This document shows, piece after piece, positions 1,751 to 30,684 of a stretch of 32,000 bases of DNA. The DNA comes from Thermodesulfobacterium commune DSM 2178 (GTDB lineage: Bacteria > Desulfobacterota > Thermodesulfobacteria > Thermodesulfobacteriales > Thermodesulfobacteriaceae), in NCBI RefSeq assembly GCF_000734015.1, contig NZ_CP008796.1, positions 390,001-422,000 on the forward strand, given 5' to 3'. The stretch's first letter is position 1. Each line of letters opens with the position of its first letter. The notes beneath the pieces are model-generated. The model was given only the letters and a program-made list of their open reading frames with translations. It did no database searches and had not been told where the DNA came from. Made by a program: the position numbers and the translations under genes.

Positions 1751-3724
1751 ATGAAAAAAATCAAATTCATTTTTAAAAATCTAAGTTTAAGTACAAAGTT
1801 TACCTTGTATCTTCTGTTTGTTATTACTCTTTTCTGTTTTCTTTTTTCTACGATAATTTATTATTTTTTAAAAAATCAAGCAATGGAAGAGGCAAGAAGA
1901 GAAGCTGAACTCTTAATTACTCAAATAGATGCCTTAGGTGATTATGTAAAAGAAGAGTTAAGACCTTCTCTTTTTAGATTTTTTAAAGAATCAAACATAA
2001 AAGAAGATTTTATTTTAGAAGCCATGTCTACCACTCATATTAGGACAAAAGTAATGCGAAGGTTTAAAACTAAGTTTGTTGATTATGATTATAGAAGGGT
2101 TTCTCTAAAACCTATAAATCCACAGCATTTACCTAACGATTTTGAAAGAAAAATTTTAAAAAATTTTATGCAGAATCCTGAGATTAAACGTTGGGAAAAT
2201 ATTGTAGATTTCAACAAAGATAAATATCTTGTGGTTATAAAACCTATCCATGTGGAAAAAGAATGCCTTGTATGTCATGGTAAAACAAAAGACGCTCCCA
2301 AAAGTCTTCTTAAGATTTATCCACGAAAAGAAGATTTTCACTGGAAGGTTGGGGATTTGATGGGATTAGAGGCTATTTATGTACCTCTTGAAAGATGGTT
2401 GTTAGAAATAAAACATATCGCTATTACCACTTTTATTTCTGGAATGTTAACCGTTATTTTGTTGTTGATCACCATAGAAGGAGTTTTTTGGACTATAGTA
2501 GGTAAACCTATAAAAAAACTTACAGTCCATTTTAGAAATATCATTTCAGGAAATGTTCCTTTAAGCCAGAGGTTAGAAGTAGAAAGGGGAGACGAAATAG
2601 GAGAACTTCTTCAATCTTTTAATCAGTTGGCTAATCATCTTTTTGAGGCACAAGAAGCTATCAAAACCTATGCTCAAACCTTACAAACTATATTTAACCA
2701 CATAACAGACCCTTTAGCGTTGGTTAATTTAAACTGTAAAGTAGAGGTTAGTAATAGAGCCTATCAAGAATGGATAAGTCAAAAAAAGGGACCAGTTTTT
2801 AATACAGAATGTGATCCACTTAAAGCAGACCAAAATAAAACCTGCCCTATAGCTTTGATAAGAAGGGTGATTGAAACTCAACAACCTGTTTCAGAGTATA
2901 TCAGCTCAACTGAAGGAGGTTATTACTATACCCATCTCTATCCGGTATTCGATCAAACCGGTAAAGTTATAAAGGTAGTTCACTATGTAGAAGATGTGAC
3001 AGAAAAAAAGAAAATAGAAGAACAGATGGCTATTACTGAAAAATTGGCTGCTATAGGGCAACTTGCCGCAGGCATAGCTCATGAAATAAACAACCCTTTA
3101 GGTGGTATTATTTTGTGTTTAAATAATATCCTTAAAACTTCTATGGATGAGAAAACCAAAAATCAACATATAGAACTTATAAACCAGGGATTGTCCCGTA
3201 TTCAAAATATAATAAAGGTATTACTTGATTTTTCTCGGACAACAGAGCTAAATCTTAGAGTTTGTGAGATTAAAGACTTGATAGAAAATGTTTTAAAATT
3301 GATAAATTATTATTTAAAAGAAAAAAATATAAAACTAAAAATAGAATTAGAACAAAAATTAAGTCCAGTTTATTTAGATTCGAACAAAATCGAACAAGTT
3401 TTACTTAACCTGATTTTAAACGCGGTAGATGCTATGGAAAATTCTGAAGAAAAAGTTTTAACCATAAAAGTTTATCATAAAGATGGTAAAATGTTTATTG
3501 AGGTGTCAGATACAGGTTCAGGTATCCCGCCACATGTAGCAGAAAAAGTTTTTGATCCCTTTTTTACTACTAAACCTTTGGGTAAAGGCACCGGGCTTGG
3601 TCTCTTTATTTCTAAGTCTATCGTGGAACAACATGGAGGAAAAATATGGTTTACTACCTCTGAAAAAGGAACTACCTTTGTAGTGGAAATACCTTTAGAG
3701 GGGCGAAGGATACATGAAGGGTAG
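1751..3724 (+). CDS. Sensor histidine kinase with an extracytoplasmic CxxCH (haem-c) domain of DUF3365/Tll0287-like type, followed by HAMP, PAS, HisKA and HATPase domains
   Basis: 657 aa. TM1 spans roughly residues 17-40 and TM2 roughly 225-250. ECLVCHGKTKDAP (C172/C175/H176, nt 2264-2278) lies between the TMs. H-box is AHEINNPL. ATP-binding boxes are NLILNAVDAM, DTGSGI and GTGLGL. The gene overlaps the downstream response regulator by 11 nt. Confidence 0.9.
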   Translation: MKKIKFIFKNLSLSTKFTLYLLFVITLFCFLFSTIIYYFLKNQAMEEARREAELLITQIDALGDYVKEELRPSLFRFFKESNIKEDFILEAMSTTHIRTKVMRRFKTKFVDYDYRRVSLKPINPQHLPNDFERKILKNFMQNPEIKRWENIVDFNKDKYLVVIKPIHVEKECLVCHGKTKDAPKSLLKIYPRKEDFHWKVGDLMGLEAIYVPLERWLLEIKHIAITTFISGMLTVILLLITIEGVFWTIVGKPIKKLTVHFRNIISGNVPLSQRLEVERGDEIGELLQSFNQLANHLFEAQEAIKTYAQTLQTIFNHITDPLALVNLNCKVEVSNRAYQEWISQKKGPVFNTECDPLKADQNKTCPIALIRRVIETQQPVSEYISSTEGGYYYTHLYPVFDQTGKVIKVVHYVEDVTEKKKIEEQMAITEKLAAIGQLAAGIAHEINNPLGGIILCLNNILKTSMDEKTKNQHIELINQGLSRIQNIIKVLLDFSRTTELNLRVCEIKDLIENVLKLINYYLKEKNIKLKIELEQKLSPVYLDSNKIEQVLLNLILNAVDAMENSEEKVLTIKVYHKDGKMFIEVSDTGSGIPPHVAEKVFDPFFTTKPLGKGTGLGLFISKSIVEQHGGKIWFTTSEKGTTFVVEIPLEGRRIHEG

Positions 3725-5099
3725 AATACTGATAGTAGACGATGAACCGATAATTTTGTTTGGTTTATCTCATTATCTTAAGGATCAGGGGTTTGAAGTA
3801 GATACCTGTGAGAAGGGAGAAGAGGCTTTAAAGAAAATAGAAGAACAGAAATTTGATCTATGCATCCTTGATCTTAAACTTCCCGACATAGACGGTATCT
3901 CTTTACTTAAGAAAATTAAAGAAAAACAAGAACAAATAGGGATAATAATGATTACTGCCTTTGCTGAGGTTAAAAGTGCGGTACAGGCTATAAAAGAAGG
4001 AGCTTTTGATTACTTAGCAAAACCTTTTAGTAATGAAGAATTGATGGTTGTAGTTGAAAAGTTTTTTGAGTTTAAAAATTTAAGAAAAGAGGTAAATGAA
4101 CTAAGAGAAAAATTAAGAAAAAAAGAGACTTTAAAACAGATAGTAGGAGAAAGTAAGGCTATAAAAGAGGTAATCAATAAAATAGAGCTTATAGCTAAAA
4201 CAGACGTTCCTGTGCTTATTTTGGGAGAAAGTGGCACAGGAAAAGAGTTGGTAGCAGATTGTATCCAGGCTTTAAGCTTAAGAGCCAAAAACCCTTATCT
4301 TAAAATCAATTGTGCAGCCATTCCTGAAAATCTATTTGAAGCAGAGCTTTTTGGCTATGAAAGAGGGGCTTTTACCGGTGCCCATACTTCCAAAAAAGGT
4401 ATGTTAGAACTGGCTAACAAAGGAACGCTTTTTTTGGATGAAATAGCAGAACTTCCTCAGAACCTACAAGCTAAACTTCTAAGAGTTTTAGAAGACCAAA
4501 CAGTTTATCGATTAGGAGGAGATAAACCTATTAAGGTTGATGTAAGGTTCATCTATGCAACCAGTAAAGACCTAAAACAGTTGGTAAAAGAAGGCAAATT
4601 TAGAGAAGATCTATACTACAGAATAAATGTAATGTCTATAGAAATCCCTCCCCTTAGAGACAGAAAAGAAGATATACCGATCTTGATTAATCATTATTTG
4701 AAATATTTTTCTGAAGAGTTCCAAAGGCCTTTACCTCAGATAACAGAAGAAGCTTTCCAAGCTTTGATAAGATATGATTATCCTGGTAACGTAAGAGAAC
4801 TAAAACATGCCATAGAAAGGGCAGTTTTATTAGCCGTAGACGGCAATATAACTCTAGCCCATCTACCTGAAGAAATAAGCCAGAGTTTTAAATCAGAAAA
4901 AAAAGATGTTTTAGATTATAAACTCGCTAAAGAATCTATAGAAAAAGAATTTATACTTAAAACTTTAATAGAAACCAACTGGAACAAAACCGAAGCAGCC
5001 AAAAAATTAGGTATCAGTAGAAAAACCCTATGGCAAAAACTCAAAAAATTTAACCTTCTTTACCATCACTCAGAGGATGCAATCCAATCAGAAGAGTAG
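3714..5099 (+). CDS. Sigma-54-dependent response regulator (NtrC family: REC, AAA+, Fis-type HTH)
   Basis: 461 aa. REC region is ILIVDDE...LDLKLPDIDG...KP. Walker A is GESGTGKE, the sigma-54 contact loop is GAFTGA, Walker B is GTLFLDEI. Also REDLYYRINV and PPLRDRKEDI. C-terminal HTH is NKTEAAKKLGISRKTLWQKLKK. Confidence 0.93.
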   Translation: MKGRILIVDDEPIILFGLSHYLKDQGFEVDTCEKGEEALKKIEEQKFDLCILDLKLPDIDGISLLKKIKEKQEQIGIIMITAFAEVKSAVQAIKEGAFDYLAKPFSNEELMVVVEKFFEFKNLRKEVNELREKLRKKETLKQIVGESKAIKEVINKIELIAKTDVPVLILGESGTGKELVADCIQALSLRAKNPYLKINCAAIPENLFEAELFGYERGAFTGAHTSKKGMLELANKGTLFLDEIAELPQNLQAKLLRVLEDQTVYRLGGDKPIKVDVRFIYATSKDLKQLVKEGKFREDLYYRINVMSIEIPPLRDRKEDIPILINHYLKYFSEEFQRPLPQITEEAFQALIRYDYPGNVRELKHAIERAVLLAVDGNITLAHLPEEISQSFKSEKKDVLDYKLAKESIEKEFILKTLIETNWNKTEAAKKLGISRKTLWQKLKKFNLLYHHSEDAIQSEE

Positions 5100-5252: not shown

Positions 5253-5268
5253 TGGTATAGTTTTTGCA
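5253..5268 (+). promoter_or_regulatory. Sigma-54 (-24/-12) promoter
   Basis: TGGTATAGTTTTTGCA has GG (5254-55), N10, GC (5266-67), which is the exact consensus spacing (TGGCAC-N5-TTGCA). It lies 115 nt upstream of the 5383 start codon. Confidence 0.7.
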
Positions 5269-7030: not shown

Positions 7031-7201
7031 ATGGCAGAAGAAAAAGAAGCAAGGTTGATAGAAGAACTTCAGAAGATGCAATATGATCCATGGTTACCTA
7101 TAGAAAGCAAACTGGTAAAATGGTCTATAAGTTTAGGTATAATCCTTTTGATTATTTTAGTTTGGGTTAGTTATACTTTCTTTCCTTCTTCTCACGGATA
7201 A
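7031..7201 (+). CDS. Small single-pass membrane protein, unknown function, co-transcribed with the transporter
   Basis: Start moved from the track's 7004 to ATG 7031 because AAGGAGG (7018-7024) lies 6 nt upstream. Sequence is MAEEKEARLIEELQKMQYDPWLPIESKLVKWSISLGIILLIILVWVSYTFFPSSHG, with one TM. It is followed by a strong terminator. Confidence 0.55.
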   Translation: MAEEKEARLIEELQKMQYDPWLPIESKLVKWSISLGIILLIILVWVSYTFFPSSHG

Positions 7202-7228
7202 GATTTTAGTTAATATCTAAAAACTTAA

Positions 7229-7267
7229 GCCCTGAGAGGTTTTAGAAGGCCTCTCAGGGCTTTTTTG
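7229..7267 (+). terminator. Rho-independent terminator
   Basis: GCCCTGAGAGG (7229-7239) pairs perfectly with CCTCTCAGGGC (7250-7260). T6 follows at 7261-7266. Confidence 0.85.
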
Positions 7268-7381
7268 TTTAATTTTTAAAGATCTAAAGTATTATCAATC
7301 TCAATTTATATTTTTCTTTTGATATATAACAATTTAGCTATATTATTATTATATAACATACTTTGTATGAGGAGGGTAGTG

Positions 7382-8030
7382 ATGGAAAGGGAATTATTAG
7401 AGAAAATGTTTGAGTTTCATGGACACAAATGCTGGGCGTCAGCTTTAGGGTTAAGGGCTGGGTTGATTGCGTTAAGAGAACTTGGCTCCCCAAGAAGTGG
7501 TGCTAAGACTTTTTATACTATCTTGGAAACTGGATACAATCATGGTGCTGGCTGTTTTGGAGATGGGGTTCAGTATGCCAAGGTTGTACCACAGGAAAAG
7601 GTAATCTTTTAAGGAATCCCAGAGGGAAACTTGCTTTTACTCTAATTGATCCACAAAAAAGGAAACAAATAAGAATAAGTTTTAATCCAAAGATAAGATA
7701 AGAGAACAGATTGCTAAATCAAATTTTATGAAAAAAAGATCTCAGGGAATACCACCTACAGAGATTCCTGAAGAGGACGTATGGGAGGTAGTAAATCTTG
7801 TGCATAATGCCCCAGAGGAAGAAGTTTTATTTATTGGAAAAGTTGAAGACTCAAACTTTGAACCTCCCTTCGAAGTGATGGGGATGGAAGTTTGTGAGAT
7901 ATGTGGAGAGATGGTATCACTACCTTACATCAGATTACTTGGGACAAATAAAGCCTGTTCTACTGGTAACAAAAAGGTTTGTATAGACTGTTCAGGTTAT
8001 GAAGAAGGCTTTGAAAAAAGGAAGGTATGA
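7382..8030 (+). pseudogene. FmdE-domain protein (FmdE-like N-domain plus C-terminal Cys-rich zinc ribbon), broken by two frameshifts
   Basis: Frame 2 gives MERELLEKMFEFHGHKCWASALGLRAG...GAGCFGDGVQYA. Frame 1 (7576-7698) gives CQGCTTGKGNLLRNPRGKLAFTLIDPQKRKQIRISFNPKIR. Frame 0 (7686-8030) gives ...EVCEICGEMV...KVCIDCSGY. The shifts lie near 7578-7585 and 7690-7700 (aagataagataag). AGGAGG lies 5 nt upstream of ATG 7382. Confidence 0.75.
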
Positions 8031-8033
8031 AAA

Positions 8034-8782
8034 ATGACCTACCTTATTGCTTGTATAATTACGTTTATTTTTACGACAGTGCTTACGATAGCCGGGGTAG
8101 GGGCTGCGTTTATTCTTATTCCAGTTTTTGTGGGTTTAGGGGTGCCTCTTCTTACTGCCATGTCAACAGCTTTACTTTTAAACAGTATAGCTATGGCTAT
8201 TGCTTCTTCTTATAATGCAAGGTCGGGGCTAATTGTTTATATAAAATAGCCCTGCCTATTTTAGTATTTGCTTCGGTGTTTTCTCCAGTTGGTGCTATCA
8301 CAGCAGAACATCTTTCAAGAACCCTGCTTTTATGGCTTTTTGTTGGTTTTCTAATTTTTGCAGGGTCTATGATGCTTTGGTATAAACCCAAAAAAAAGGG
8401 AGATTTCAGATAGTAAAAAGCTTATTATTTATGGAGTTGCGGTTGGTGGATTTGCGGGTTATATAGGAGGGCTTTTGGGAGTAGGTGGAGGGAATCTTAT
8501 AGTTCCAGCTCTTGTTTGGCTTGGTATTGACCCTAAAAAGCCTCAGCCACCACCAGTTTTATCGTAATTTTTTCTTCTTTTTCAGGATTTTTAGGGCATA
8601 TTTCTGTGGGGAACATAGACCCTTATCTTCTTGTTTTATGCATTATAGGTTCAATAGCTGGTGCATTGCTTGGAAACTATCTTATGAGAAAAAGGTTAAC
8701 TGCTCCTCAGGTTAAAAAAGTTATAGGAATAGTATTGTATATCATCGCAGTTAAGATGCTTTGGGATTTATTGGTTAAGTAA
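8034..8782 (+). pseudogene. TauE/SafE (DUF81) family anion exporter, broken by three frameshifts
   Basis: Four frame segments read in series. They are MTYLIACIITFIFTTVLTIAGVGAAFILIPVFV...; ALPILVFASVFSPVGAITAEHLSRTLLLWLFVGFLIFAGSMMLW; LIIYGVAVGGFAGYIGGLLGVGGGNLIVPALVWLG; and ASATTSFIVIFSSFSGFLGHISVGNIDPYLLVLCIIGSIAGALLGNYLM...KMLWDLLVK. The shifts occur at A-runs 8243-8246, 8390-8397 (A8) and 8535-8539. Confidence 0.75.
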
Positions 8783-8817
8783 AACCTTACATAAAAATAG
8801 CTTTTGGAGGATAAAGT

Positions 8818-9896
8818 ATGAGTTCCAGAAAAAATTTAGGTATTTTAGAACGATTTCTTACTTTGTGGATCTTTTTAGCTATGATTTTAGGAATAGGGTT
8901 AGGTTATATATATCCAGAAATAGCTTATACCATCAGTTCATTAAGCATTGGAACGACCTCTCTTCCAATAGCTATAGGACTTATCCTTATGATGTATCCT
9001 CCTCTTGCTAAGGTTAAATACGAGGAAATGGGGAAAGTTTTTAAGAATAAAAAACTTCTTGTTCTTTCTTTGATCCAAAACTGGATTGTTGGGCCTATCG
9101 TTATGTGGATACTTGCTGTTTTGTTGCTTCACGATTATCCTGGTTATATGATAGGAGTGATTTTGGTAGGGCTTGCAAGATGTATAGCTATGGTAATAGT
9201 TTGGAATGAGTTGGCAGAAGGAGATAAAGAACTTGCTGTAGGATTAGTAGCTTTTAATGCTATATTTCAAATTCTTTTTTATGCTGCTTATATTTATCTT
9301 TTTATAACAGTTGGACTTAAATGGTTAGAGTTTGGTATAATAGAAGCGGAGGTTTCAATTCCAGAGGCAGCAAAAACTGTTTTTATTTAGGGATTCCTTT
9401 CATAGCAGGAATTCTTACTCGTTATGTTAGCTTTGTTTTAAAAGGAAGAGAATGGTTTGAAAAAGTGTTGGCACCTAAAATAAGTTATCTAACCCCGATT
9501 GCCTTGTTATTCACCATAGTTGTGATGTTTTCTTTAAAAGGGCAGTATATAGTTGAACTACCTTTACATGTTATAAGGGTGGCTATTCCCCTTTGTATTT
9601 ATTTTCTCTTTATGTGGTTTGTAACTTTTTTAATGGCTTTTAAACTAAAGGTCGGTTATCCTAAAGCAACTGCTGTTGCTTTTACTGCAGCAAGTAACGA
9701 CTTTGAACTTGCGATTGCGGTGGCAGTAGCCATATGGGGGATAGGGAGTGAACAAGCTTTTGCTACCGTTATAGGACCTTTATTAGAAGTTCCGATCTTA
9801 ATTAGTTTAGTTAACGTAGCCTTATTCTTAAAAAGAAAAATATATAAAGAGTTAGAAACAAAAATTAGCCTTATTGTTAAGAATAAAAATACTTAG
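8818..9896 (+). pseudogene. acr3: ACR3-family arsenite efflux permease, split by one frameshift
   Basis: The N-part (8818-9390) contains ...[21 protein letters not shown]...[12 protein letters not shown]...[13 protein letters not shown]. The C-part in the next frame contains [13 protein letters not shown]...[16 protein letters not shown]...[10 protein letters not shown]. The junction ...KTVF(I)/YLGIPF falls at T5 run 9380-9384, consistent with a 1-nt deletion. Confidence 0.8.
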
Positions 9897-11697: not shown

Positions 11698-12077
11698 GCT
11701 GCTGATACCACCTCTTTTGTGCTGTGATATAACCTTACAATTTATAGGCTATATGATATCACTTTTTCATCAAAATATATATCTTGAAAATTAATAAATT
11801 TATTATTTTTCAATCTTTGATGTCGTGTTTTATGTAATTATGTCTAATACCTGATTTTAAAGGGTGATGGAGGTTTTTCCCTTTTGGTAAAGATAATAAA
11901 TTAACATTGAAATTAAAAAGAAGGAAGTTTGCTTGGGTTTAAAAAATCAATGTTTAATTTTAGAAGGGATACTTCTTCCTGCACAGGACTAACCACTTAA
12001 ATAAAATATACATAGAAGAAATAAAATTTGAAAAACAAAAATTAATTTTGAATAAATCTTGCTTTCACAAGCTGTAT

Positions 12078-12393
12078 AGTTTTATAGTTTTAGTAGGCAT
12101 AAAGATTACCATAAGGCCTATGTGAAACAGGGGTTATTTTTGAAAACCTATCGTTTATTATAGATTCTAAGTTTTCATCCATGTCGGCACAGTATTCTGT
12201 TAAAATTGTTTTAAGATATGTTAGATCCTCTTCGTTTATAGGAGAAATTTTAAGGTTTTTCCCAAGAAAAAACGGGTCTAATTCACCTCTTATGTAGATA
12301 ACTCCTCCATGCATTCCTGTGCCTAAAAATTTTCCGGTTATAGGTTTTTCTGGATGTTGAGAGAATAAGCCTAATACGATGATAGTTCCTCCT
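12078..12393. repeat. Direct repeat copy B (316 bp, identical to 9956-10271)
   Basis: See copy A. It covers 12 bp downstream of the stop plus the 3' end of the intact gene 12090-12833. Confidence 0.9.
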
Positions 12394-12833
12394 GCCATGT
12401 ATTCACCCAAAAAATCTCCTGTTTTTCCACCTATGACGATTACAGGATGTTTATCTTGATAGGCTTTCATGTGAATTCCTACTCGATAACCAACATCTCC
12501 TTTGATGAAAATTTTCCCACCTCTCATACTATAACCTATAACATCTCCTGCCATACCATATACAACAATTTTACCTTCTTCCATGGTATTACCACAGGCA
12601 TCTTGAACGTTACCATAAACGTATATGTCAGGTCCACTCATAAAACAACCTAAATCAAGTCCCGGGACACCCAAAATTTTAGCCTTGATTTTTTGTTTTA
12701 TACCTGCAAACAAATATCTATGGCCATTTACTCTATGTAGTTCAAATTCTGTTTCTCCTTCTGATATTTTTTCACGTATATATTGATTAACTTTGGTATA
12801 ACTCCAATTTTCCACGTTTAAAATAACGCTCAT
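12090..12833 (-). CDS. Glutamate synthase GXGXG-domain subunit (GltB C-terminal domain homologue)
   Basis: 247 aa. Repeated G-x-G-x-G beta-helix strings: ...YVYGNVQDACGNTMEEGKIVVYGMAGDVIGYSMRGGKIFIKGDVGYRVG...VIGGKTGDFLGEYMAGGTIIVLG.... It is the last gene of the three-gene set. Confidence 0.85.
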   Translation of the reverse strand: MSVILNVENWSYTKVNQYIREKISEGETEFELHRVNGHRYLFAGIKQKIKAKILGVPGLDLGCFMSGPDIYVYGNVQDACGNTMEEGKIVVYGMAGDVIGYSMRGGKIFIKGDVGYRVGIHMKAYQDKHPVIVIGGKTGDFLGEYMAGGTIIVLGLFSQHPEKPITGKFLGTGMHGGVIYIRGELDPFFLGKNLKISPINEEDLTYLKTILTEYCADMDENLESIINDRFSKITPVSHRPYGNLYAY

Positions 12834-12858
12834 TCAGGACTTCCTCCTACTTTAAGTT

Positions 12859-13974
12859 TTAGGCATAACTTTTTTGATTAGGGATAGTACCCATTGGCAT
12901 TTCTATGATTACAGGTTCTCCAGCCTTAGGATACCATATTAACTCTGGATTAGGGCAGATAGTTCTTATGGCAGCTTCTTCGCTTGCTAAGTAATAAAAG
13001 TCTTCAAATTTAGCTACTACTAAAGGTCTAAGTTTAACTCTATCTGTTAGTCCTACTATTCCGCCATTATATGCAAAAATAATAGCAAAAGGTCCATTTA
13101 ACAGAGCCCCTCCATAAACTATCCTTAAAGCTTCGAGTAAATTTTTTTCCTCTTCCTCTAATCGTTCTATCTCCATCCAAAAAGGTGGTGCTAAAGCAGT
13201 GCATGCTAACTTGATAGGCAGTTTATGTCTTCTTATAAGCAAATCTAAAAGATAGGTTACTACCTCAGTATCGGTAAGCAAAGTACATTTATATCCAAAC
13301 AGTTCTAAGTATCTTTTGTTTGTCCCATAGCTTGAGATTTCCCCGTTATGAACGATTGACCAGTCAAGAAGACTGAATGGATGTGCTCCTCCCCACCAAC
13401 CAGGAGTGTTTGTGGGAAAACGATTATGAGCGGTCCATATGTAGGCTTGATATTCATCTATTTTAAAAAATTCTGCTATTTCTTCAGGAAACCCTACACC
13501 TTTGAAAACACCCATATTTTTACCAGAAGAAAGTATATACACACCATTTAGGTTAGCGTTGATATACATTACCATTTCTATTAATTTGTTTTCCTCTTCT
13601 TCTGTTGGAAGTTGTTCTTCCAGTTCAAGTTTAACAAAGTATCTTTTAAAAATAGGAGGATTTTTTATAGTTTTTACTTTTCTAGTAGGAATAGGTTCAT
13701 GATATATAGCTTTGACTTGTTGAAAAAGAAACCTTTCAAATCTTTCTAAAGAATTTTTATCTTCAGCCATTACATGTAGGGCGTAAAATTCTTTAAAATC
13801 AGGATAGATACCATAACCAGCAAACCCTGCTCCAAGACCATTTCCTCTTTCTTCTTGGCAGGTTATAGATTTTATTATTAGGTCTCCTGGAATTAAACTA
13901 CCTTTAACATTTATTATCCCAGACACTCCACAACCAGAGATATCCTTATTATCTTTAAAAATAAATTCCCACAT
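12859..13974 (-). CDS. Glutamate synthase glutamine amidotransferase subunit (class II / Ntn GATase, GltB N-terminal domain homologue)
   Basis: 371 aa. ...DISGCGVSGIIN... is the candidate catalytic Cys after a 14-residue leader. Other motifs are ...HNRFPTNTPGWWGGAHPF... and ...IVHNGEISSYG.... Confidence 0.85.
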   Translation of the reverse strand: MWEFIFKDNKDISGCGVSGIINVKGSLIPGDLIIKSITCQEERGNGLGAGFAGYGIYPDFKEFYALHVMAEDKNSLERFERFLFQQVKAIYHEPIPTRKVKTIKNPPIFKRYFVKLELEEQLPTEEEENKLIEMVMYINANLNGVYILSSGKNMGVFKGVGFPEEIAEFFKIDEYQAYIWTAHNRFPTNTPGWWGGAHPFSLLDWSIVHNGEISSYGTNKRYLELFGYKCTLLTDTEVVTYLLDLLIRRHKLPIKLACTALAPPFWMEIERLEEEEKNLLEALRIVYGGALLNGPFAIIFAYNGGIVGLTDRVKLRPLVVAKFEDFYYLASEEAAIRTICPNPELIWYPKAGEPVIIEMPMGTIPNQKSYA

Positions 13975-13994
13975 TCCTAAACCCCTTTCTTCTT

Positions 13995-15518
13995 TTATTC
14001 TCCTGCATGTTTTACTTCAAGGATTTCCATTTCTTCTTTAGTTAACCCTATAGCCCTCAATTTGTCTCGATTGCTTCTTAAACTTTCTATCGAATTTAAT
14101 CCCATAGCTCCAAGCATTTCTTTGATTTCGCTTCTCCATGCATTCATAAGGTTATATACCTTCTCGTAGACTACTTCTGGTGGAAGCCTTTTGATAAGCT
14201 CAGGATTATTGGTAGCTATACCCCAAGGACATTTTCCTGTATAACATCTTTGACAGAGGGTACATCCTACGGCAATCAGAAGAGGGGTTCCTATCGCTAC
14301 CACGTCTGCACCTAAGGCGATGGCTTTCACCACATCAGCACTACAACGGATACCTCCAGAGGCGATTAACGTGGTTTTATGTCTGATACCTTCTTCTCTT
14401 AATCGTTTATCTACAGCGGAAATAGCAAGTTCTATAGGGATTCCTACATATTGCCTAAACATAGTCGGAGCAGCACCGGTACCTCCTCTTATACCATCTA
14501 TAACTACCGCATCGGCTCCAGCCCTTACTATCCCAGAAGCAATAGCTGCTATGTTATGTACTGCAGCTACTTTTACAAACACCGGCTTCTTATACTCAGT
14601 AGCCTCCTTTAAGGCATATATAAGGCCTCTCAAATCCTCTATTGAATAAATGTCATGATGTGGGGCTGGGGATAGAGCATCAGTCCCTAAAGGTATCATC
14701 CTGGTTTTAGAGATTTCTTTGTTAACCTTTTCTCCTGGAAGATGTCCCCCTATACCAGGTTTGGCTCCCTGACCTATTTTGATTTCAATGGCTACTCCAG
14801 CATTAAGATAATCTACATTTACCCCAAACCTTCCAGAAGCACACTGGACTATTGTATGGTCTTTGTATTCATACAAAGAAGGATGCAAACCTCCTTCACC
14901 GGTGTTGTAAAGAATTCCTAACTCTTTAGCTGCACGCGCCAGTCCTTGATGAATATGAAGACTTATAGATCCATAAGACATTCCAGAAAATATTATAGGC
15001 ATTTCTAACTTTATTAAAGGAGGTAAAGCTTTTTTTAGCTTATATCCTGTTTCTGTTTTTTCTACCTCTAATTTTTCGGGTTTTGACCCTATATAGGTAC
15101 GAAGTTCCATAGGTTCTCTTAAAGGGTCTATGGGTGGGTTGGTAACTTGACATGCATCGATGACAAGATGATCAAAATATATCTTTAAAGGTAAATCACA
15201 TCCGGTAGAAGAGAGTAAAACACCACCTTTGTCTGCTTGTTTGTATATGTTTTTTATAAAATAAGGATTCCATAGATGATGTTCTCTAAATTGAGAAGGA
15301 TGTCTTTTAATTATGATAGCATCAGTTGGACACATAGCTTCACATCTATGACATCCTACACATTTACCATGGTCTTCTTTGAGAATTTTCTTTTTTTCAT
15401 CCCAGGTATGCACCTCATAGGTGCACTCTTTAACACAGATTTTACATTTTATACATTTGTTTTCTAAGCGTTCTACAAAAAAATCCGGATAAAAACTTGA
15501 AAAGTTAATCGGCTTCAT
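13995..15518 (-). CDS. gltB: Glutamate synthase FMN/Fe-S domain subunit with an N-terminal 2x[4Fe-4S] ferredoxin domain (archaeal-type GltB)
   Basis: 507 aa. CIKCKICVKEC...CVGCHRCEAMCP are two ferredoxin Cys clusters. Further motifs are ...IKIGQGAKPGIGGHLPG..., ...SPAPHHDIYSIEDL..., ...VVIDGIRGGTGAAP... and ...ASGGIR.... Confidence 0.9.
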   Translation of the reverse strand: MKPINFSSFYPDFFVERLENKCIKCKICVKECTYEVHTWDEKKKILKEDHGKCVGCHRCEAMCPTDAIIIKRHPSQFREHHLWNPYFIKNIYKQADKGGVLLSSTGCDLPLKIYFDHLVIDACQVTNPPIDPLREPMELRTYIGSKPEKLEVEKTETGYKLKKALPPLIKLEMPIIFSGMSYGSISLHIHQGLARAAKELGILYNTGEGGLHPSLYEYKDHTIVQCASGRFGVNVDYLNAGVAIEIKIGQGAKPGIGGHLPGEKVNKEISKTRMIPLGTDALSPAPHHDIYSIEDLRGLIYALKEATEYKKPVFVKVAAVHNIAAIASGIVRAGADAVVIDGIRGGTGAAPTMFRQYVGIPIELAISAVDKRLREEGIRHKTTLIASGGIRCSADVVKAIALGADVVAIGTPLLIAVGCTLCQRCYTGKCPWGIATNNPELIKRLPPEVVYEKVYNLMNAWRSEIKEMLGAMGLNSIESLRSNRDKLRAIGLTKEEMEILEVKHAGE

Positions 15519-15562
15519 TTTTCACCCTTTTTATAAAAACTTTTTAAAGCTTCAAAAATATA

Positions 15563-15578
15563 ATCAAAAAGCATACCC
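15563..15578 (-). promoter_or_regulatory. Possible sigma-54 promoter for the glutamate synthase genes (imperfect -12)
   Basis: Reverse strand reads GGGTATGCTTTTTGAT, i.e. GG-N10-GA (TTGA instead of TTGC). It closely resembles the 5253 element TGGTATAGTTTTTGCA and ends 44 nt upstream of the 15518 start. Confidence 0.35.
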
Positions 15579-15638
15579 AATTTTTAGCGCTTTATAACGC
15601 CATGTCTTTAACCTAAATCTACATATATATACAATTTT

Positions 15639-16361
15639 TTACAATTTTGTTAATTTTTGTTGAAAGTTAAGACCTAAAAAACCAAAAATGTCTCTTGGAT
15701 ATATTTTTTTATTTTTAAAAATTACTAGTCTTTCTACTAAATTTTGGATTTCTAATATGTTATCAGGCCAAGGATATTCTTTTAATATTTCTATGGTTGA
15801 AGGATGAAAGGAAATTTTCTTGTTGTATATACGGTTAAATTTATTTAAAAAATGAGATAAAAGAACAGGAATATCATCTTTTCTTTCTCTTAAAGGTAGA
15901 ACCTGAAAGATATAAAAGTAAGTTTTAATTGGGTCTGACTGAATTTCTGAAGTAGAAGATGAAGCTATTATTTTTAATTGAGAGTTATATAAAATAAATT
16001 TAAGCAAATTCCTTAAAAGTTCTTCTGGAAAGGCCTCTAAGTGTTTTAAAAAGATAGTTCCATTTTGATTTTGCAGAAGATAAAACTCTTTAAGTATTTC
16101 TTCTTTATAAAAACATTCTAAACAGTCTAAATAAAAGAAAGGATGGTTTTTATTTGCTGAATGGTGGACTAATTTAGCTATAGAAGATTTTCCAACTCCT
16201 CTTTCTCCCCACAAAAGAAAGGGAATTTTAGAAGCATACAGTTTTTCCAGTTTACCCAATATCGTATTCAAATAAGGAAGGTCGATAAATTCCTTAAGAA
16301 CAACTTTAACAGGTTTAATTTTAAAAAGCCCCCGAGAAGGGGGCTTTTTAAAATCATTCAT
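15639..16361 (-). CDS. Degenerate sigma-54-activator-like AAA+ protein (no GAFTGA loop, no Walker B acidic pair, no receiver/GAF domain, no HTH)
   Basis: 240 aa. Walker A GERGVGKS is retained, as are the C-terminal bEBP blocks LPLRERKDDIPVLLSHFL and YPWPDNILEIQNLVERL. Where bEBPs have ...ELFGxxxGAFTGA...GTLFLDEI... this protein has a ~20-residue shorter segment ending GTIFLKHLE. FREDLYYR is replaced by IKTYFYIF. Confidence 0.7.
   Translation of the reverse strand: MNDFKKPPSRGLFKIKPVKVVLKEFIDLPYLNTILGKLEKLYASKIPFLLWGERGVGKSSIAKLVHHSANKNHPFFYLDCLECFYKEEILKEFYLLQNQNGTIFLKHLEAFPEELLRNLLKFILYNSQLKIIASSSTSEIQSDPIKTYFYIFQVLPLRERKDDIPVLLSHFLNKFNRIYNKKISFHPSTIEILKEYPWPDNILEIQNLVERLVIFKNKKIYPRDIFGFLGLNFQQKLTKL
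16323..16349 (-). terminator. Rho-independent (bidirectional-type) terminator just after glnA
   Basis: Minus-strand RNA reads AAAAAGCCCCC-UUCUC-GGGGGCUUUUU followed by AAAAUU. The GC core stem is 16328-16333/16339-16344. It lies inside codons 5-13 of ORF 15639-16361. Confidence 0.7.
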
Positions 16362-16363
16362 CT

Positions 16364-17698
16364 TTAAAGGACTGGCAGGTATTTTTCTATTTCGTATTCA
16401 AAAACCCTTATTCTGTAATCATCCCATTCTAATTTTTTGTTTGTGATAAGCTGATTATAGATGTGTTCACCTAAAACCTCCCTTAACACCGTACCTTTTT
16501 CTGCCTCCTCTATGGCCTCATACAAGCTTCCGGGCAACTCTTTTATACCTAACTTTTTTCTTTCTTCAGGAGTTAGATGGTATACATCGAGTTCTACAGG
16601 GTCTGGCAATGTGTATTTATTTTGAATTCCTTTTAAGCCTGCCCAAAGCATGGCTGCAAACGCTAAATATGGATTACATCCTGGGTCAGGAGACCTAAGT
16701 TCAATCCTGGTAGCTTTCTCTTTTCCTGGTTTATACATAGGAACCCTAATTAAGGCAGACCTATTTCTTCTTGCCCAACAGATGTAAACCGGAGCTTCGT
16801 ATCCAGGAACCAGTCTTTTATAGGAATTTACCCATTGATTAAGCACTAAAGTGATTTCTCTAATATGATTAAGTATTCCGGCGGTATATTGTTTGGCAAT
16901 ATCAGAAAGATGATATGGGTCTTGAGGGTCAAAAAAGGCATTTTTATCTCCTATGAAAAGAGACTGGTGGGTATGCATACCACTTCCGTTTACTCCAAAT
17001 ATAGGTTTAGGCATGAAGGTAGCATAAACTCCATATTTTTGAGCTATTTCTTTAACAGTAACCTTGTAAGTCATAACGATATCTGCCATGTCTAAAGCGT
17101 TGGCATACCTTAAGTCTATTTCGTGTTGAGAAGGAGCCACCTCATGATGAGAATACTCAACCCTAATCCCCATGGCTTCTAAAGCCAAAATGGTATCTCT
17201 TCTTAGGTCTTCAGCAGCATCTAAGGAATAATCAAAGTATCCCCCCTGATCCAAAATTTCAGGATTATTAGGTGATTTAAAGTAGAAAAACTCTAACTCA
17301 GGTCCTACAAAAAAATTTGTAAAACCCATTTCTTGCATTTTTTCTAACGCTTTCTTTAACACATACCTTGGGTCTCCTTTATAAGGACTACCATCTGGTT
17401 CATAGATATCGCAAAACATCCTTGCTACAGTTTTTTCTTTAGGTCTCCAAGGAAGAATGATAAAAGTCGTTGGGTCTGGAATAGCCACCATATCTGATTC
17501 ATCAATCCTTGCAAACCCCTGGATAGAAGAACCGTCAAATCCCATCCCTTCCTCAAAGGCAACCTCTAATTCATCTACGTGGATGGTAAAACTTTTTAGT
17601 TGACCTAATACATCGGTAAACCAGAGCTTTACAAACATTACATCATGAGCTTTGATAAGTTCCATCACATCTTTTTTGTCTCTGGGTTTGTTTAGCAT
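16364..17698 (-). CDS. glnA: Glutamine synthetase, type I
   Basis: 444 aa. Motifs are ...FVKLWFTDVLGQLKSF..., ...FDGSSIQGF..., ...GPELEFFYF..., ...KPIFGVNGSGMHTHQSL... and ...NRSALIRVP.... RBS GGAGGAGG is present. Confidence 0.95.
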   Translation of the reverse strand: MLNKPRDKKDVMELIKAHDVMFVKLWFTDVLGQLKSFTIHVDELEVAFEEGMGFDGSSIQGFARIDESDMVAIPDPTTFIILPWRPKEKTVARMFCDIYEPDGSPYKGDPRYVLKKALEKMQEMGFTNFFVGPELEFFYFKSPNNPEILDQGGYFDYSLDAAEDLRRDTILALEAMGIRVEYSHHEVAPSQHEIDLRYANALDMADIVMTYKVTVKEIAQKYGVYATFMPKPIFGVNGSGMHTHQSLFIGDKNAFFDPQDPYHLSDIAKQYTAGILNHIREITLVLNQWVNSYKRLVPGYEAPVYICWARRNRSALIRVPMYKPGKEKATRIELRSPDPGCNPYLAFAAMLWAGLKGIQNKYTLPDPVELDVYHLTPEERKKLGIKELPGSLYEAIEEAEKGTVLREVLGEHIYNQLITNKKLEWDDYRIRVFEYEIEKYLPVL

Positions 17699-17735
17699 CT
17701 TTTACCTCCTCCATCAAGGTTGTTTCAAAAATTAA

Positions 17736-17751
17736 AGCAATTTGTATGCCT
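17736..17751 (-). promoter_or_regulatory. Sigma-54 (-24/-12) promoter of glnA
   Basis: Reverse strand reads AGGCATACAAATTGCT with GG-N10-GC and a TTGC -12 element. It ends 37 nt upstream of the glnA ATG. Confidence 0.7.
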
Positions 17752-17956
17752 ATTAAAGCCTGGATATACAGTTTAGATAAAAAAGTTCGATATAAACCAA
17801 AAAGTGCATTAAAGTAAATTTTTGTAAAATTGTGTAACTTATGGTTCAATCAAATCCTTACATAGAAAATTTTTACACATATCTTGGTAAACTTGATAAG
17901 TTTTTAAAGGTAGTTATAATTTTTTATTGTAAAAACATAGTTTGAGAAAATGAAAG

Positions 17957-19489
17957 ATGATATCAAAAAATCAAATAGAACGAGCTTACCAAGAACTTCT
18001 TACTTTGTTTAAAGTGAGTAAGGTTTTAAGTTCATCTTTAAACATTTTTGAAAATTTGAAAAATGCTCTGCAAATACTTGCAGAAGACCTATATTTAACA
18101 AGGGGCACGGTTACGCTTTTTGATTCAGCTGTTAATGAGCTAAAAATAGTTGTAGCCTATGGACTTACAGAAGAACAGATTAGAAGAGGACGTTACAAAA
18201 TTGGAGAAGGTATTGTAGGTAAGGTTTTTGAATCAGGACAACCTATGATTGTACCAAACATAGGTGAAGAACCTATGTTTTTAAATAAAACAGGGGCCAG
18301 GGTTAAAAAAGACAAAATTTCTTTTTTATGTGTTCCCATCAAGTTAGGAGATGAAATCTTTGGGGTTTTATCGGTTGACAGGATATTTGATGTAAATACA
18401 GATTTTGCTGAAGACCTAAGGGTTTTAGAAATTTTAGCCACACTCTTTGCTCAGATAATAAAGATTTACAACTTACTCTATGAGGAGAAAAAGAAAAGAG
18501 AATTTTTTGAAAAAGAGGTAAAGAAAAAATATCAGTTTTACAATCTTGTATATTCTTCAGAACAGATGAGACAGATAATAAAGATATGTGAAAAAATCTC
18601 CTCTACCAAGGCTCCAGTTTTAATTCAGGGAGAAAGTGGTACCGGAAAAGAGTTAATAGCTAAAGCCATCCACTTTAACAGTGATAGAGCAGACAAACCT
18701 TTTATAGCCATAAATTGTGCGGCTATCCCAGAAAATTTATTAGAGGCAGAGCTTTTTGGTTATGAAAAAGGGGCTTTTACCGGAGCTTTTACCTCTAAGC
18801 CTGGAAAATTTGAGTTGGCTAACGGAGGGACTCTATTTTTAGATGAAATCGGAGATCTTCCTTTATCTCTTCAAGCTAAGTTGTTAAGGGTTTTACAGGA
18901 GCATACCTTTGAAAGATTAGGAGGAACTAAATCCATAAAGGTAGATTTTCGTTTGATTTCAGCTACGCATAAAAACTTAAAAGAGCTTATCAGCCAGGGT
19001 AAGTTTAGAGAGGATCTGTACTTTAGAATAAACGTAGTAAACATATACATACCTCCTTTAAGGGAAAGAAAAGAAGATATAGTGGTTTTAATCGAACATT
19101 TTTTAAATCAACTAAACCAAAAATATCAAAAATCGGTAAAAATTTCTAAAGAAGTTTTAAAAATTTTTTTAGAATATCCTTGGCCAGGTAATGTAAGAGA
19201 ACTTGAAAATACTCTTGAAAGTATGGTAATACTCTCTGATGATGAATTGATTACACCAGAACACCTACCTGAAGTTTTTAAATCTTGTCAAATAAGTCAA
19301 CCTAAATCTGATGTTCAAGAAAGTTCCTTACAAGCCATCAACCTCAAGCAACAAATAGAGGAAGAGGAGAAACAAAGGATCATCTCAGCACTTAAAGCTT
19401 GCAAGTTTAACCAAACGCAAGCAGCTAAACTTTTAGGGATGACAAGAAGACAGCTAAACTATCGTCTTCATAAGTATGGTATCATCTAA
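17957..19489 (+). CDS. Sigma-54-dependent transcriptional activator with N-terminal GAF domain (NifA/NtrC-like: GAF, AAA+, HTH), divergent from glnA
   Basis: 510 aa. The GAF-like N-terminus contains ...[20 protein letters not shown]...[19 protein letters not shown]...[19 protein letters not shown]+ motifs are [25 protein letters not shown] and [11 protein letters not shown]-terminal HTH is [24 protein letters not shown]. Confidence 0.92.
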
Positions 19490-19498
19490 CCAACCTTT

Positions 19499-20188
19499 TT
19501 AAAGGGTAAAGAATTTGTCATAAAAATTTTTTGCCCTTAATGAGTATTCTATATAGATTTCTTCTGATTCTTTAAGTATAACGTTTTTTAAAGGAAAGTC
19601 CTCAAACCATTGGGCAATTATATTTTTGGTTACTTCTACGTGAAATTGAAGGGCATAAACCTTTTGATCAAATTTAAAAGCTTGGTTTTCATAAAGAGTT
19701 GATCTTGCAAGATGGATAGCCCCTGAGGGGAGGTCAAAAGTGTCTCCATGCCACTGGAATACTTTAAATTTCTTAGAAATTTGGCCTGTTGCAGGATGTG
19801 TAGCTAAAGAAAGCATCAAAGGATCTTCTAAACCTTGGGGAGTTAATTCAACCTCAAACCAACCAATTTCCTCTTTAGGTCCTTTAAAAACTTTAGCCCC
19901 GAGAACATGAGCTATCAACTGAGCTCCAAGACAGATCCCCAGGACTTTTAAGTTTTTATTGATTGCTTTTTCTATAATTTGAGCAACACCCCTTAAATAG
20001 GGGTATTGCTCCATTTCATATACTCCCATCGGTCCACCCATTACAATTAACCCGGTGTAATCATCTAAACTGAAAGGTAGTTCTCCTTCTTGAGCTTCAA
20101 AAATTTTATAAGGGATCCGGTATTTTTTTAGATAGGTCTCTATACTTCCAGGCCCTTCTTCTTTTACATTTTTTATGATAGCTATCAT
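19499..20188 (-). CDS. Class I glutamine amidotransferase (GuaA-like GATase1 domain protein)
   Basis: 229 aa. The nucleophile elbow is ...VLGICLGAQLIA... and the His region is ...ALQFHVEVT.... It is the last gene after P-II, with a 12-nt gap. Confidence 0.8.
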   Translation of the reverse strand: MIAIIKNVKEEGPGSIETYLKKYRIPYKIFEAQEGELPFSLDDYTGLIVMGGPMGVYEMEQYPYLRGVAQIIEKAINKNLKVLGICLGAQLIAHVLGAKVFKGPKEEIGWFEVELTPQGLEDPLMLSLATHPATGQISKKFKVFQWHGDTFDLPSGAIHLARSTLYENQAFKFDQKVYALQFHVEVTKNIIAQWFEDFPLKNVILKESEEIYIEYSLRAKNFYDKFFTL

Positions 20189-22790: not shown

Positions 22791-22806
22791 TGCGAAAAAT
22801 ATGCCA
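22791..22806 (-). promoter_or_regulatory. Sigma-54 (-24/-12) promoter of the porin-amtB-glnK-GATase operon
   Basis: Reverse strand reads TGGCATATTTTTCGCA with GG-N10-GC. It ends 44 nt upstream of the 22746 ATG, with AGGAGG in between. Confidence 0.7.
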
Positions 22807-22872
22807 GAAATACAAGTTCTCTTAACAAAAGGAAATCCTTAAGTTTTGAGAAATATTTTTTAACAAAAAGTT

Positions 22873-22924
22873 ACAAAAATATACAATTAAATTCAAGGGT
22901 TTTTAGATTTTTGTATATTTTTGT
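22873..22924. promoter_or_regulatory. 14-bp perfect inverted repeat pair, candidate UAS for the 22791 sigma-54 promoter
   Basis: ACAAAAATATACAA (22873-22886) and TTGTATATTTTTGT (22911-22924) are exact reverse complements separated by 24 nt. The pair is centred about 95 bp upstream of the -24 element. Confidence 0.4.
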
Positions 22925-30523: not shown

Positions 30524-30598
30524 CGCCCCCAAGGGGATTCGAACCCCTGTCGCCGGCGTGAAAGGCCGGTGTCCTGGACCTGGCTAGACGATGGGGGC
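30524..30598 (-). tRNA. tRNA-Glu (anticodon UUC)
   Basis: Reverse strand reads GCCCCCATCGTCTAGCCAGGTCCAGGACACCGGCCTTTCACGCCGGCGACAGGGGTTCGAATCCCCTTGGGGGCG. The acceptor stem is GCCCCCA/TGGGGGC. The anticodon stem CCGGC/GCCGG carries loop CTTTCAC. Confidence 0.9.
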
Positions 30599-30611: not shown

Positions 30612-30684
30612 TGGGCCGGGCAGGACTCGAACCTGCGACTCTCGGCTTAAAAGGCCGATACTCTACCGACTGAGTTACCGGCCC
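30612..30684 (-). tRNA. tRNA-Lys (anticodon UUU)
   Basis: Reverse strand reads GGGCCGGTAACTCAGTCGGTAGAGTATCGGCCTTTTAAGCCGAGAGTCGCAGGTTCGAGTCCTGCCCGGCCCA. The anticodon stem TCGGC/GCCGA carries loop CTTTTAA. Confidence 0.9.

Follow-up and report, generated by a model that had tools for sequence, protein, structure and literature searches.

Between glnA and the genes of a split glutamate synthase, Thermodesulfobacterium commune DSM 2178 carries a gene under purifying selection whose product is a stand-alone AAA+ core plus lid of the type found in bacterial enhancer-binding proteins (bEBPs), and nothing else. The gene was found in a 32,000-nucleotide stretch of contig NZ_CP008796.1 (positions 390,001 to 422,000 of the forward strand), which is referred to here as the window and whose own numbering is used throughout. 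This open reading frame (ORF) lies at 15639..16361 on the minus strand and consists of an ATG start and 240 codons, encoding 240 amino acid residues. Judged by its motifs, the product is predicted to fail most of the features that define a functional sigma-54 activator, and we regard it as a real, selected, but degenerate bEBP paralogue for which a regulatory role is plausible. An earlier interpretation made from the nucleotide sequence, called here the sequence-only reading, had already described the ORF as a degenerate sigma-54-activator domain, and its claims are taken up where the results bear on them.

Homology and predicted fold of the ORF product

In Pfam searches, AAA_lid_14 (PF25601) was assigned to residues 158–219 of the ORF product (E = 6e-19; 68.1 bits against a cut-off of 27), and Sigma54_activ_2 (PF14532) was assigned to residues 34–139 (E = 1.8e-10; 41.6 bits against a 25-bit cut-off). 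The product also matched Sigma54_activat (PF00158) with E = 1e-8 and 35.5 bits against a cut-off of 20.2. This match was limited to residues 31–82, which correspond to positions 8–60 of the 168 profile positions, and the remainder was unmatched. The NCBIfam matches were to sigma-54 activators only, each far under its own cut-off. A profile made from the ORF product and its two orthologues, those of T. hveragerdense and Thermodesulfobacterium sp. TA1, matched Aquifex aeolicus NtrC1 (1ny6) in HMMER with E = 3.5e-25.

The AlphaFold2 model of the product had a predicted local distance difference test score (pLDDT) of 86.6 and a predicted template modeling score (pTM) of 0.82, with pLDDT values below 50 at residues 1–11. 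When the model was compared with the Protein Data Bank (PDB) by Foldseek, the top matches were exclusively bEBP AAA+ domains (NtrC1, FlrC, FleQ, and PspF; E from 1e-15 to 1e-11), and the best of them were those of NtrC1 (4lzz, 3m0e, and 1ny6), with E of about 1e-15 and a template modeling (TM) score of 0.74. The Pfam, HMMER, and Foldseek matches were all significant and bear out the relationship to the bEBP AAA+ domain on which the sequence-only reading was built. No N-terminal sensory domain was detected in the ORF product by Pfam, and no match to the helix-turn-helix (HTH) family HTH_8 was obtained, only 18 residues being present past the lid; these results are also in line with what that reading had stated. 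A C-terminal enhancer-binding HTH of the Fis type is usual in bEBPs, although not universal.

Selection on the ORF

The orthologues of T. hveragerdense and TA1 were 89% and 60% identical to the ORF product, with lengths of 240 and 237 residues, respectively, and their reading frames were open. At the base composition of the window (about 35% GC), the probability that 240 stop-free codons occur by chance was about 1.7e-8. The ratio of nonsynonymous to synonymous divergence (dN/dS) calculated by the Nei-Gojobori method was 0.18 between the window and T. hveragerdense (dS 0.30) and 0.16–0.17 in the comparisons with TA1 (dS about 1.5). Fisher tests of whether the proportion of nonsynonymous differences (pN) was lower than that of synonymous differences (pS) gave p = 9e-11 and 5e-23. 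The dN/dS values of five neighboring genes were 0.03–0.09.

The segments of the protein were also analyzed separately. Across the core, pN/pS was 0.15–0.31 with p < 1e-8, and this included the recent branch between the window and T. hveragerdense. Residues 84–135, which contain the deletions and the dead Walker B described below, had a pN/pS of 0.15–0.27, as low as that of the lid (0.23), and the Walker A segment was also separately under selection. Beyond codons 1–25, synonymous sites were saturated (pS 0.6–0.8) versus a pN of 0.14–0.23.

Motifs kept and lost

The motifs were examined in an alignment of the ORF product with the two intact activators encoded in the window, activators of Caldimicrobium and T. 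geofontis, and NtrC1; the orthologues compared were those of the window, T. hveragerdense, and TA1. Walker A (residues 52–59) is intact, reading GERGVGKS or GESGVGKS, and is invariant in the three orthologues. The L1 hairpin with its GAFTGA motif has been removed by a 13+3-residue deletion in all three of them. The pre-sensor-I (L2) hairpin is missing as well: compared with NtrC1 and the in-window activators, 12 residues are deleted there. Walker B reads FLKHLE (residues 104–109), in which K106/H107 stand in place of DE, and the corresponding pair is KN in T. hveragerdense and NH in TA1. The sensor-I motif ATN is replaced by SSS (residues 134–136). At the position of the RxDxxxR motif, the ORF product has IKTYFY (residues 145–150), in which the first position is still basic (K, K, and R in the window, T. 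hveragerdense, and TA1, respectively) and the Asp and the second Arg are lost. The Arg of the sensor-II motif GNxRELxN is Leu in the window and T. hveragerdense (DNILEIQN) and Arg in TA1 (ANIRELQN); it corresponds to R227 of PspF in a numbering worked out from the PspF sequence. The LPLRERKxDI segment (LPLRERKDDI, residues 155–164) and the lid (residues 158–219) are well conserved.

All of the motifs quoted in the sequence-only reading were present, namely GERGVGKS, FLKHLE, IKTYFY, LPLRERKDDI, and YPWPDNILEIQNLVERL, the last of which is located at residues 196–212. Alignment to the activators confirmed the deletion of the GAFTGA-bearing loop and the KH pair in Walker B that it had described, although the size that it gave for the loop deletion, about 20 residues, should be 16. 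Its statement that every element needed for the canonical function has been lost is right in that the core is degenerate but is overstated, because Walker A is invariant, a basic residue (K or R) is still found at the first finger position, and TA1 has the sensor-II Arg. The L2 deletion, the replacement of the sensor-II Arg by Leu, the basic first finger residue, and a hairpin within codons 3–15 (see below) were not mentioned in it.

In PspF, the RxDxxxR trans-acting motif is formed by R162, D164, and R168, and substitutions in these residues abolished ATPase activity while hexamers were still formed (PMC3419264). The ORF product is predicted to be incapable of acting as an activator because it is without L1, L2, Walker B, and an HTH; it should be unable to contact sigma-54 via L1, to hydrolyze ATP by a canonical Walker B, or to bind DNA. 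The combination of an invariant P-loop with a Walker B that drifts among KH, KN, and NH suggests that nucleotide is most likely still bound by the product and not hydrolyzed. A sigma-70 regulator of the TyrR or Rhodobacter capsulatus NtrC type was also considered for the ORF product and was rejected, since no DNA-binding domain is present. The degenerate features are common to the three orthologues and are therefore older than a split with saturated synonymous divergence, which points to long maintenance of the dead form of the protein.

Genomic context and distribution

The ATG of the ORF lies 2 nt past the stop codon of glnA, with which the ORF is co-oriented, and an intact GAF-type activator is encoded 1.6 kb away, as the sequence-only reading had noted. 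The 2-nt junction is also kept in T. hveragerdense and TA1 (L001 and L004). A spacer of 120 nt separates the ORF from the split glutamate synthase genes downstream. Orthologues of the GAF-type activator are present in the same position in L001, L004, L007, L008, and L011, and the degenerate protein may have this activator as its partner or target. Another intact activator in the window, encoded at 3714–5099, is of the receiver type. The features of the region are listed in Table 1.

Table 1. Positions of the ORF, its neighboring genes, and associated elements in the window
Feature	Position	Strand	Evidence or remarks
Stand-alone degenerate bEBP-type AAA+ core and lid (ORF)	15639..16361	minus	Pfam, AlphaFold2, Foldseek, HMMER, dN/dS
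glnA, type I glutamine synthetase	16364..17698	minus	Stop codon 2 nt before the ORF ATG
Split glutamate synthase, 3 genes (Fer4+Glu_synthase, GATase_2, GXGXG)	12090..15518	minus	Genes at 13995–15518, 12859–13974, and 12090–12833; downstream of the ORF, same orientation
Intact GAF-AAA+-HTH sigma-54 activator	17957..19489	plus	Divergent from glnA, 1.6 kb from the ORF
Terminator-like 16-bp perfect hairpin AUUUUAAAAAGCCCCC-UUCUC-GGGGGCUUUUUAAAAU and U-run	16318..16354	minus	Codons 3–15 of the ORF
Sigma-54 type -24/-12 promoter AGGCATACAAATTGCT	17736..17751	minus	Upstream of glnA; GG-N10-GC in all three species
Sigma-54-like element TTGGGTATGCTTTTTGAT, GG-N10-GA, atypical -12	15563..15580	minus	Spacer between the ORF and gltB; three-species alignment

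A survey for glnA-linked homologues, which the sequence-only reading had proposed, found orthologues in only three Thermodesulfobacterium lineages, each with the gene order glnA, ORF, glutamate synthase. In a word-indexed search of 5.8 billion proteins, only three clusters were found at E < 1e-79, and the next match was an ordinary bEBP with E = 3e-19. In an exhaustive hidden Markov model (HMM) search of 1.84 billion representatives, the family was a single 50%-identity cluster, and the next match had E = 2.8e-30 with a score summed over three AAA+ domains. The ORF family is thus confined to a few thermophilic Thermodesulfobacterium lineages. In the related lineages L008 and L010, nothing was found in the slot of the ORF.

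The GlnA of L008 is 85% identical, but past its gene there is a stretch of 1.2 kb (7142–8386) with no ORFs other than those of 26–81 residues. The possibility that this region is a decayed bEBP gene was rejected, because the best tblastn match had E = 0.25.

The arrangement of the glutamate synthase genes differs within the genus. T. geofontis (L006, 1432–5832) has one fused glutamate synthase large subunit of 1466 residues, encoded divergently from glnA, and the window, T. hveragerdense, and TA1 have three separate glutamate synthase genes downstream of glnA. Within the genus, then, the nitrogen locus has been rebuilt.

Possible origin of the ORF

The Caldimicrobium-like loci L007 and L011 have the order divergent GAF-type bEBP, glnA, GC hairpin, second full-length GAF-AAA+-HTH bEBP, PII, and amtB, and the glnA-downstream bEBP consists of 494 or 493 residues. 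In the sister group, the slot of the ORF thus belongs to a bEBP. In T. geofontis, a GAF-type bEBP also follows glnA, and by identity it is of the "upstream" type. On the basis of gene position, the ORF is probably a stripped-down remnant of the glnA-downstream GAF-AAA+-HTH activator. Such an activator would have shed its GAF domain, its HTH, and several loops; a new start codon would have arisen directly past the glnA stop codon, and the old hairpin at the 3′ end of glnA would have turned into codons 3–15.

The sequence evidence for the glnA-downstream paralogue as the ancestor is mixed. Against the family profile, no single domain scored higher than that of the downstream bEBP of L007 (110.7 bits versus at most 103.3 for everything else searched), and this bEBP shares with the ORF family the unusual Walker A ending GKS and the string GKSFIAK..HFL. 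Against this descent, the downstream paralogue of L011 scored 90.1 bits, no better than the upstream paralogues, and a neighbor-joining tree (200 bootstraps) placed the ORF clade with other long branches, so that long-branch effects dominate. Proof of descent from the sequences was dropped as a claim, as the score of L011 is ordinary and the tree is uninformative.

The Walker A of the L007 downstream bEBP (8383–9867) reads GESGTGKS and departs from the form usual in bEBPs, with Ser as in the degenerate ORF family. A Glu at that Walker A position is described as an ADP-sensing residue in PspF (PMC3419264).

Hairpin within the ORF, promoters, and predicted expression

The terminator-like hairpin starts 10 nt past the glnA stop codon. 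Its folding energy was -25.7 kcal/mol (z = -5.9), none of 200 shuffled sequences folded as well (0/200), and it is the strongest terminator-like site in 11800–20000. The stem is kept in T. hveragerdense and TA1 with a variable loop. In L007 and L008, too, glnA is followed by a GC hairpin in a comparable position, and its stem core is likewise GCCCC/GGGGC. Codons 1–25 of the ORF showed low pS and a pN/pS of about 0.8, which indicates that the constraint on them is at the RNA level, not at the protein level. The peptide FKKP..GLFKIK encoded there is a mere translation of the two hairpin arms.

No Shine-Dalgarno sequence was found before the ATG of the ORF; glnA and gltB have GGAGG-like and AGGGTG-like sites. 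An alternative start 3′ of the hairpin was rejected, because no ATG, GTG, or TTG there is conserved in the three species; codon 31, for instance, is TTG in the window and CTA in TA1. Because of the terminator-like hairpin in codons 3–15, the missing Shine-Dalgarno sequence, and the position of the sole conserved start 2 nt past glnA, expression of the ORF should be low and tied to glnA by read-through and translational coupling. Most glnA transcripts would end at the hairpin; only those that extend past it would yield the ORF product, through re-initiation by ribosomes that have finished glnA. The dose of the protein would then be small and proportional to the activity of the glnA promoter.

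No canonical sigma-54 promoter was found in the ORF-gltB spacer at two or fewer mismatches with strict GG/GC. The conserved sigma-54-like element present there has GA for GC at -12, reads TTAGGCATAATTTTTGAT in TA1, and precedes the gltB start codon by about 45 nt; glutamate synthase may have a separate promoter at this element. On the minus strand, TTGTA/TTTAC is directly repeated with a period of 10 bp (TTGTA-N5-TTGTA or its complement) at 15628–15644, 17814–17829, and 22870–22886. They sit upstream of the sigma-54 promoters of glnA, gltB, and porin-amtB, and the gltB copy overlaps the stop codon of the ORF. These repeats could be enhancer sites for the GAF-type activator or chance matches in AT-rich DNA.

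Good matches to the sigma-54 -24/-12 promoter were also present elsewhere in the window: TGGCATATTTTTCGCA at 22791–22806 (minus strand), upstream of the porin-amtB-glnK-GATase operon, and TGGTATAGTTTTTGCA at 5253–5268 (plus strand), upstream of the gene for a 537-residue membrane protein at 5383. Three tRNA genes are located on the minus strand at 1566–1637, 30524–30598, and 30612–30684, and an Rfam scan of the whole window yielded nothing beyond these three.

Proposed role and alternative explanations

The sequence-only reading had suggested that the product co-assembles with, caps, or poisons hexamers of a real activator, which is plausible by analogy with RedR1/RedR2, FleQ/FleT, and HrpR/HrpS. 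As a tentative proposal, the ORF product may be a non-catalytic subunit that damps the neighboring GAF-type activator, providing a negative feedback driven by glnA. The AAA+/lid surfaces of the product would dock onto this intact activator, whose gene lies 1.6 kb away, and the resulting mixed oligomers would hold a subunit without L1 and L2, without hydrolysis, and with an incomplete RxDxxxR trans motif. Such a subunit would lower the output of the ring or block ring closure, and the formation of sigma-54 open complexes at nitrogen promoters would most likely be damped. If expression is coupled to glnA, this damping would amount to a negative feedback loop driven by glnA transcription. That the protein is a built-in brake, namely a permanently inactive bEBP subunit that is made on glnA terminator read-through and re-initiation and enters or caps the ring of its neighbor, is an idea that we advance with considerable doubt.

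Several observations weigh against damping by such a subunit. Deletions affect the trans face of the protein, in the region of the arginine-finger helix and in the pre-sensor-I loop, and the protein may no longer fit a bEBP ring. The dN/dS of the ORF is 2–5 times that of the neighboring genes, indicating weaker constraint, and the distribution of the ORF is very narrow, being limited to three lineages of one genus. Moreover, the hairpin and the missing Shine-Dalgarno sequence could mean that very little protein is made.

The remodeled trans face would suit a product that acts outside bEBP rings, such as a nucleotide-binding, non-hydrolyzing switch or adaptor that reports energy charge and acts on another protein of nitrogen metabolism, for example, PII, glutamine synthetase, or the split glutamate synthase. 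The invariant Walker A with a dead Walker B fits such a switch, as do the strong constraint on the remodeled middle segment and the constant position of the gene between glnA and gltB with predicted translational coupling to glnA. However, the best-conserved parts, the lid and the P-loop face, are those common to ordinary bEBPs, and to our knowledge there is no precedent for a bEBP core binding glutamine synthetase, glutamate synthase, or PII, so that we consider this explanation unlikely. The same position of the gene ties the ORF to the nitrogen regulon and would also agree with a positive partner subunit, similar to FleT or HrpR, that is needed for or enhances the action of the GAF-type activator at some nitrogen promoters. 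This subunit might stabilize the ring or alter its nucleotide-dependent asymmetry. FleT, which is without an N-terminal domain and an HTH, acts only together with FleQ (PMC7277832), and the first finger residue is kept as K or R in the ORF family, a change that leaves PspF active in the R162K form (PMC3419264). FleT is nevertheless described as a sigma-54 activator, whereas the ORF product is without GAFTGA, L2, the Walker B DE, and the second Arg and would add no catalytic or sigma-54-contacting capacity to a ring; a positive role is accordingly judged quite unlikely.

The remaining explanations dispense with a function of the protein, and it is the selection tests that bear on them. An activator gene that has decayed into a functionless remnant and happens to be still undisrupted would account for the multiple in-frame deletions, the loss of nearly all catalytic motifs, the evolutionary rate 2–5 times that of the neighbors, the narrow distribution, and the empty slot in L008 and L010. 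Yet the frame is open in three lineages at a dS of about 1.5 and about 35% GC, a composition at which a stop should occur about once in 14 codons, and the low pN/pS across the core disfavors such a remnant, which we regard as very unlikely. It is also conceivable that translation of the ORF or DNA and RNA elements embedded in it matter rather than the product, for example, in anti-polarity between glnA and gltB or as enhancer sites for gltB. The hairpin and the RNA-level constraint on codons 1–25 point in that direction, as does the TTGTA-N5-TTGTA repeat over the stop codon (15628–15644) with the sigma-54-like element 50 nt further downstream. Past codons 1–25, however, synonymous sites are saturated and amino acids are conserved, and the AAA+ fold is predicted with confidence. 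A role of translation without the product was rejected for the core by the same pN/pS values, and as an explanation of the whole gene it is highly improbable.

Implications

Sigma-54 activators are known to be controlled by sensory domains or by unrelated anti-activators such as PspA, NifL, HrpV, and FleN. PspF and NtrC1 have been dissected in mixed-ring experiments with engineered subunits, and active bEBP subunits are poisoned by engineered or inactive ones. If the proposed damping of the GAF-type activator is true, a selected, nucleotide-binding dead core would be the natural counterpart of these engineered rings, and it would show how a duplicated activator is recycled into a regulator of its sibling. 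A brake made from a dead paralogue would then be a kind of regulator without a described example in enhancer-dependent transcription. In databases, proteins like the ORF product are named "sigma 54-interacting transcriptional regulator". Such names are functionally misleading, and searches that rely only on Pfam domains over-count activators.

Comparison with known systems

The AAA+ domains of NtrC1 and PspF, the best structure and sequence matches, have the lid, the P-loop, and the LPLRER segment in common with the ORF product. They differ in having L1 with GAFTGA, L2, the Walker B DE, RxDxxxR, and the sensor-II Arg, which are absent or degenerate in the ORF product. The deletion of L1 with GAFTGA is found in common with sigma-54-independent regulators, namely R. 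capsulatus NtrC, Caulobacter NtrC, NtrX, and VpsR. For some of these regulators, it is nucleotide binding and not hydrolysis that matters (10.1101/2023.06.06.543975; PMC6158489). Unlike the ORF product, which has neither domain, they keep receiver and DNA-binding domains and act at sigma-70 promoters.

Similar degeneration was observed in proteins from metagenomes. P0205 is a stand-alone core of 234 residues, close to the ORF product in length, without GAFTGA and an HTH and with NN in Walker B. P0136 and P0192 are without the GAFTGA loop and have KH in Walker B (IYIKHIEHL and LYLKHIDLL, respectively) like the ORF product, but P0136 keeps a C-terminal HTH-like tail and P0192 keeps a receiver domain. 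These three proteins are not orthologues of the ORF product (E of about 1e-21 to 1e-23), and the genomic context of P0205 is unrelated (L009). The occurrence of P0205 suggests that dead bEBP cores arose more than once. At the locus of P0205 (L009, 5001–5705), an ORF of 170 residues without a Pfam match lies 19 nt upstream.

A full-text search of a literature library found no characterized dead or pseudo-ATPase bEBP core like the ORF product, in agreement with the sequence-only reading, which knew of no characterized member of this kind. Mixed bEBP oligomers formed through central domains are on record for FleQ/FleT, HrpR/HrpS, RedR1/RedR2, and VnfA paralogues. Hetero-oligomers of paralogous GAF-type bEBPs may permit negative regulation, and mixed rings of competent bEBP paralogues are regarded as rare (PMC9542535). 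HrpR/HrpS and RedR1/RedR2 are paralogous bEBPs that interact via their central AAA+ domains, and in the latter pair, inactive RedR forms inhibit the active partner through identical central domains (PMC10084136). In both pairs, however, the two members are complete, competent, and DNA-binding, whereas the ORF product consists of a dead core only.

FleT of Rhodobacter (Cereibacter) sphaeroides is an AAA+-only subunit that partners FleQ and comes closer as a precedent than the sequence-only reading acknowledged. Neither FleT (PMC10084136) nor the ORF product has an N-terminal regulatory domain or an HTH. FleT forms a hetero-oligomer with a full-length bEBP (PMC10084136, PMC9542535), an association that is a proposal in the case of the ORF product. 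In addition, FleT is a sigma-54 activator that is required for activation (PMC7277832), in contrast to the ORF product with its loss of GAFTGA, L2, the Walker B DE, and the second Arg. FleT is the nearest characterized architecture to the ORF product, but it is an activator.

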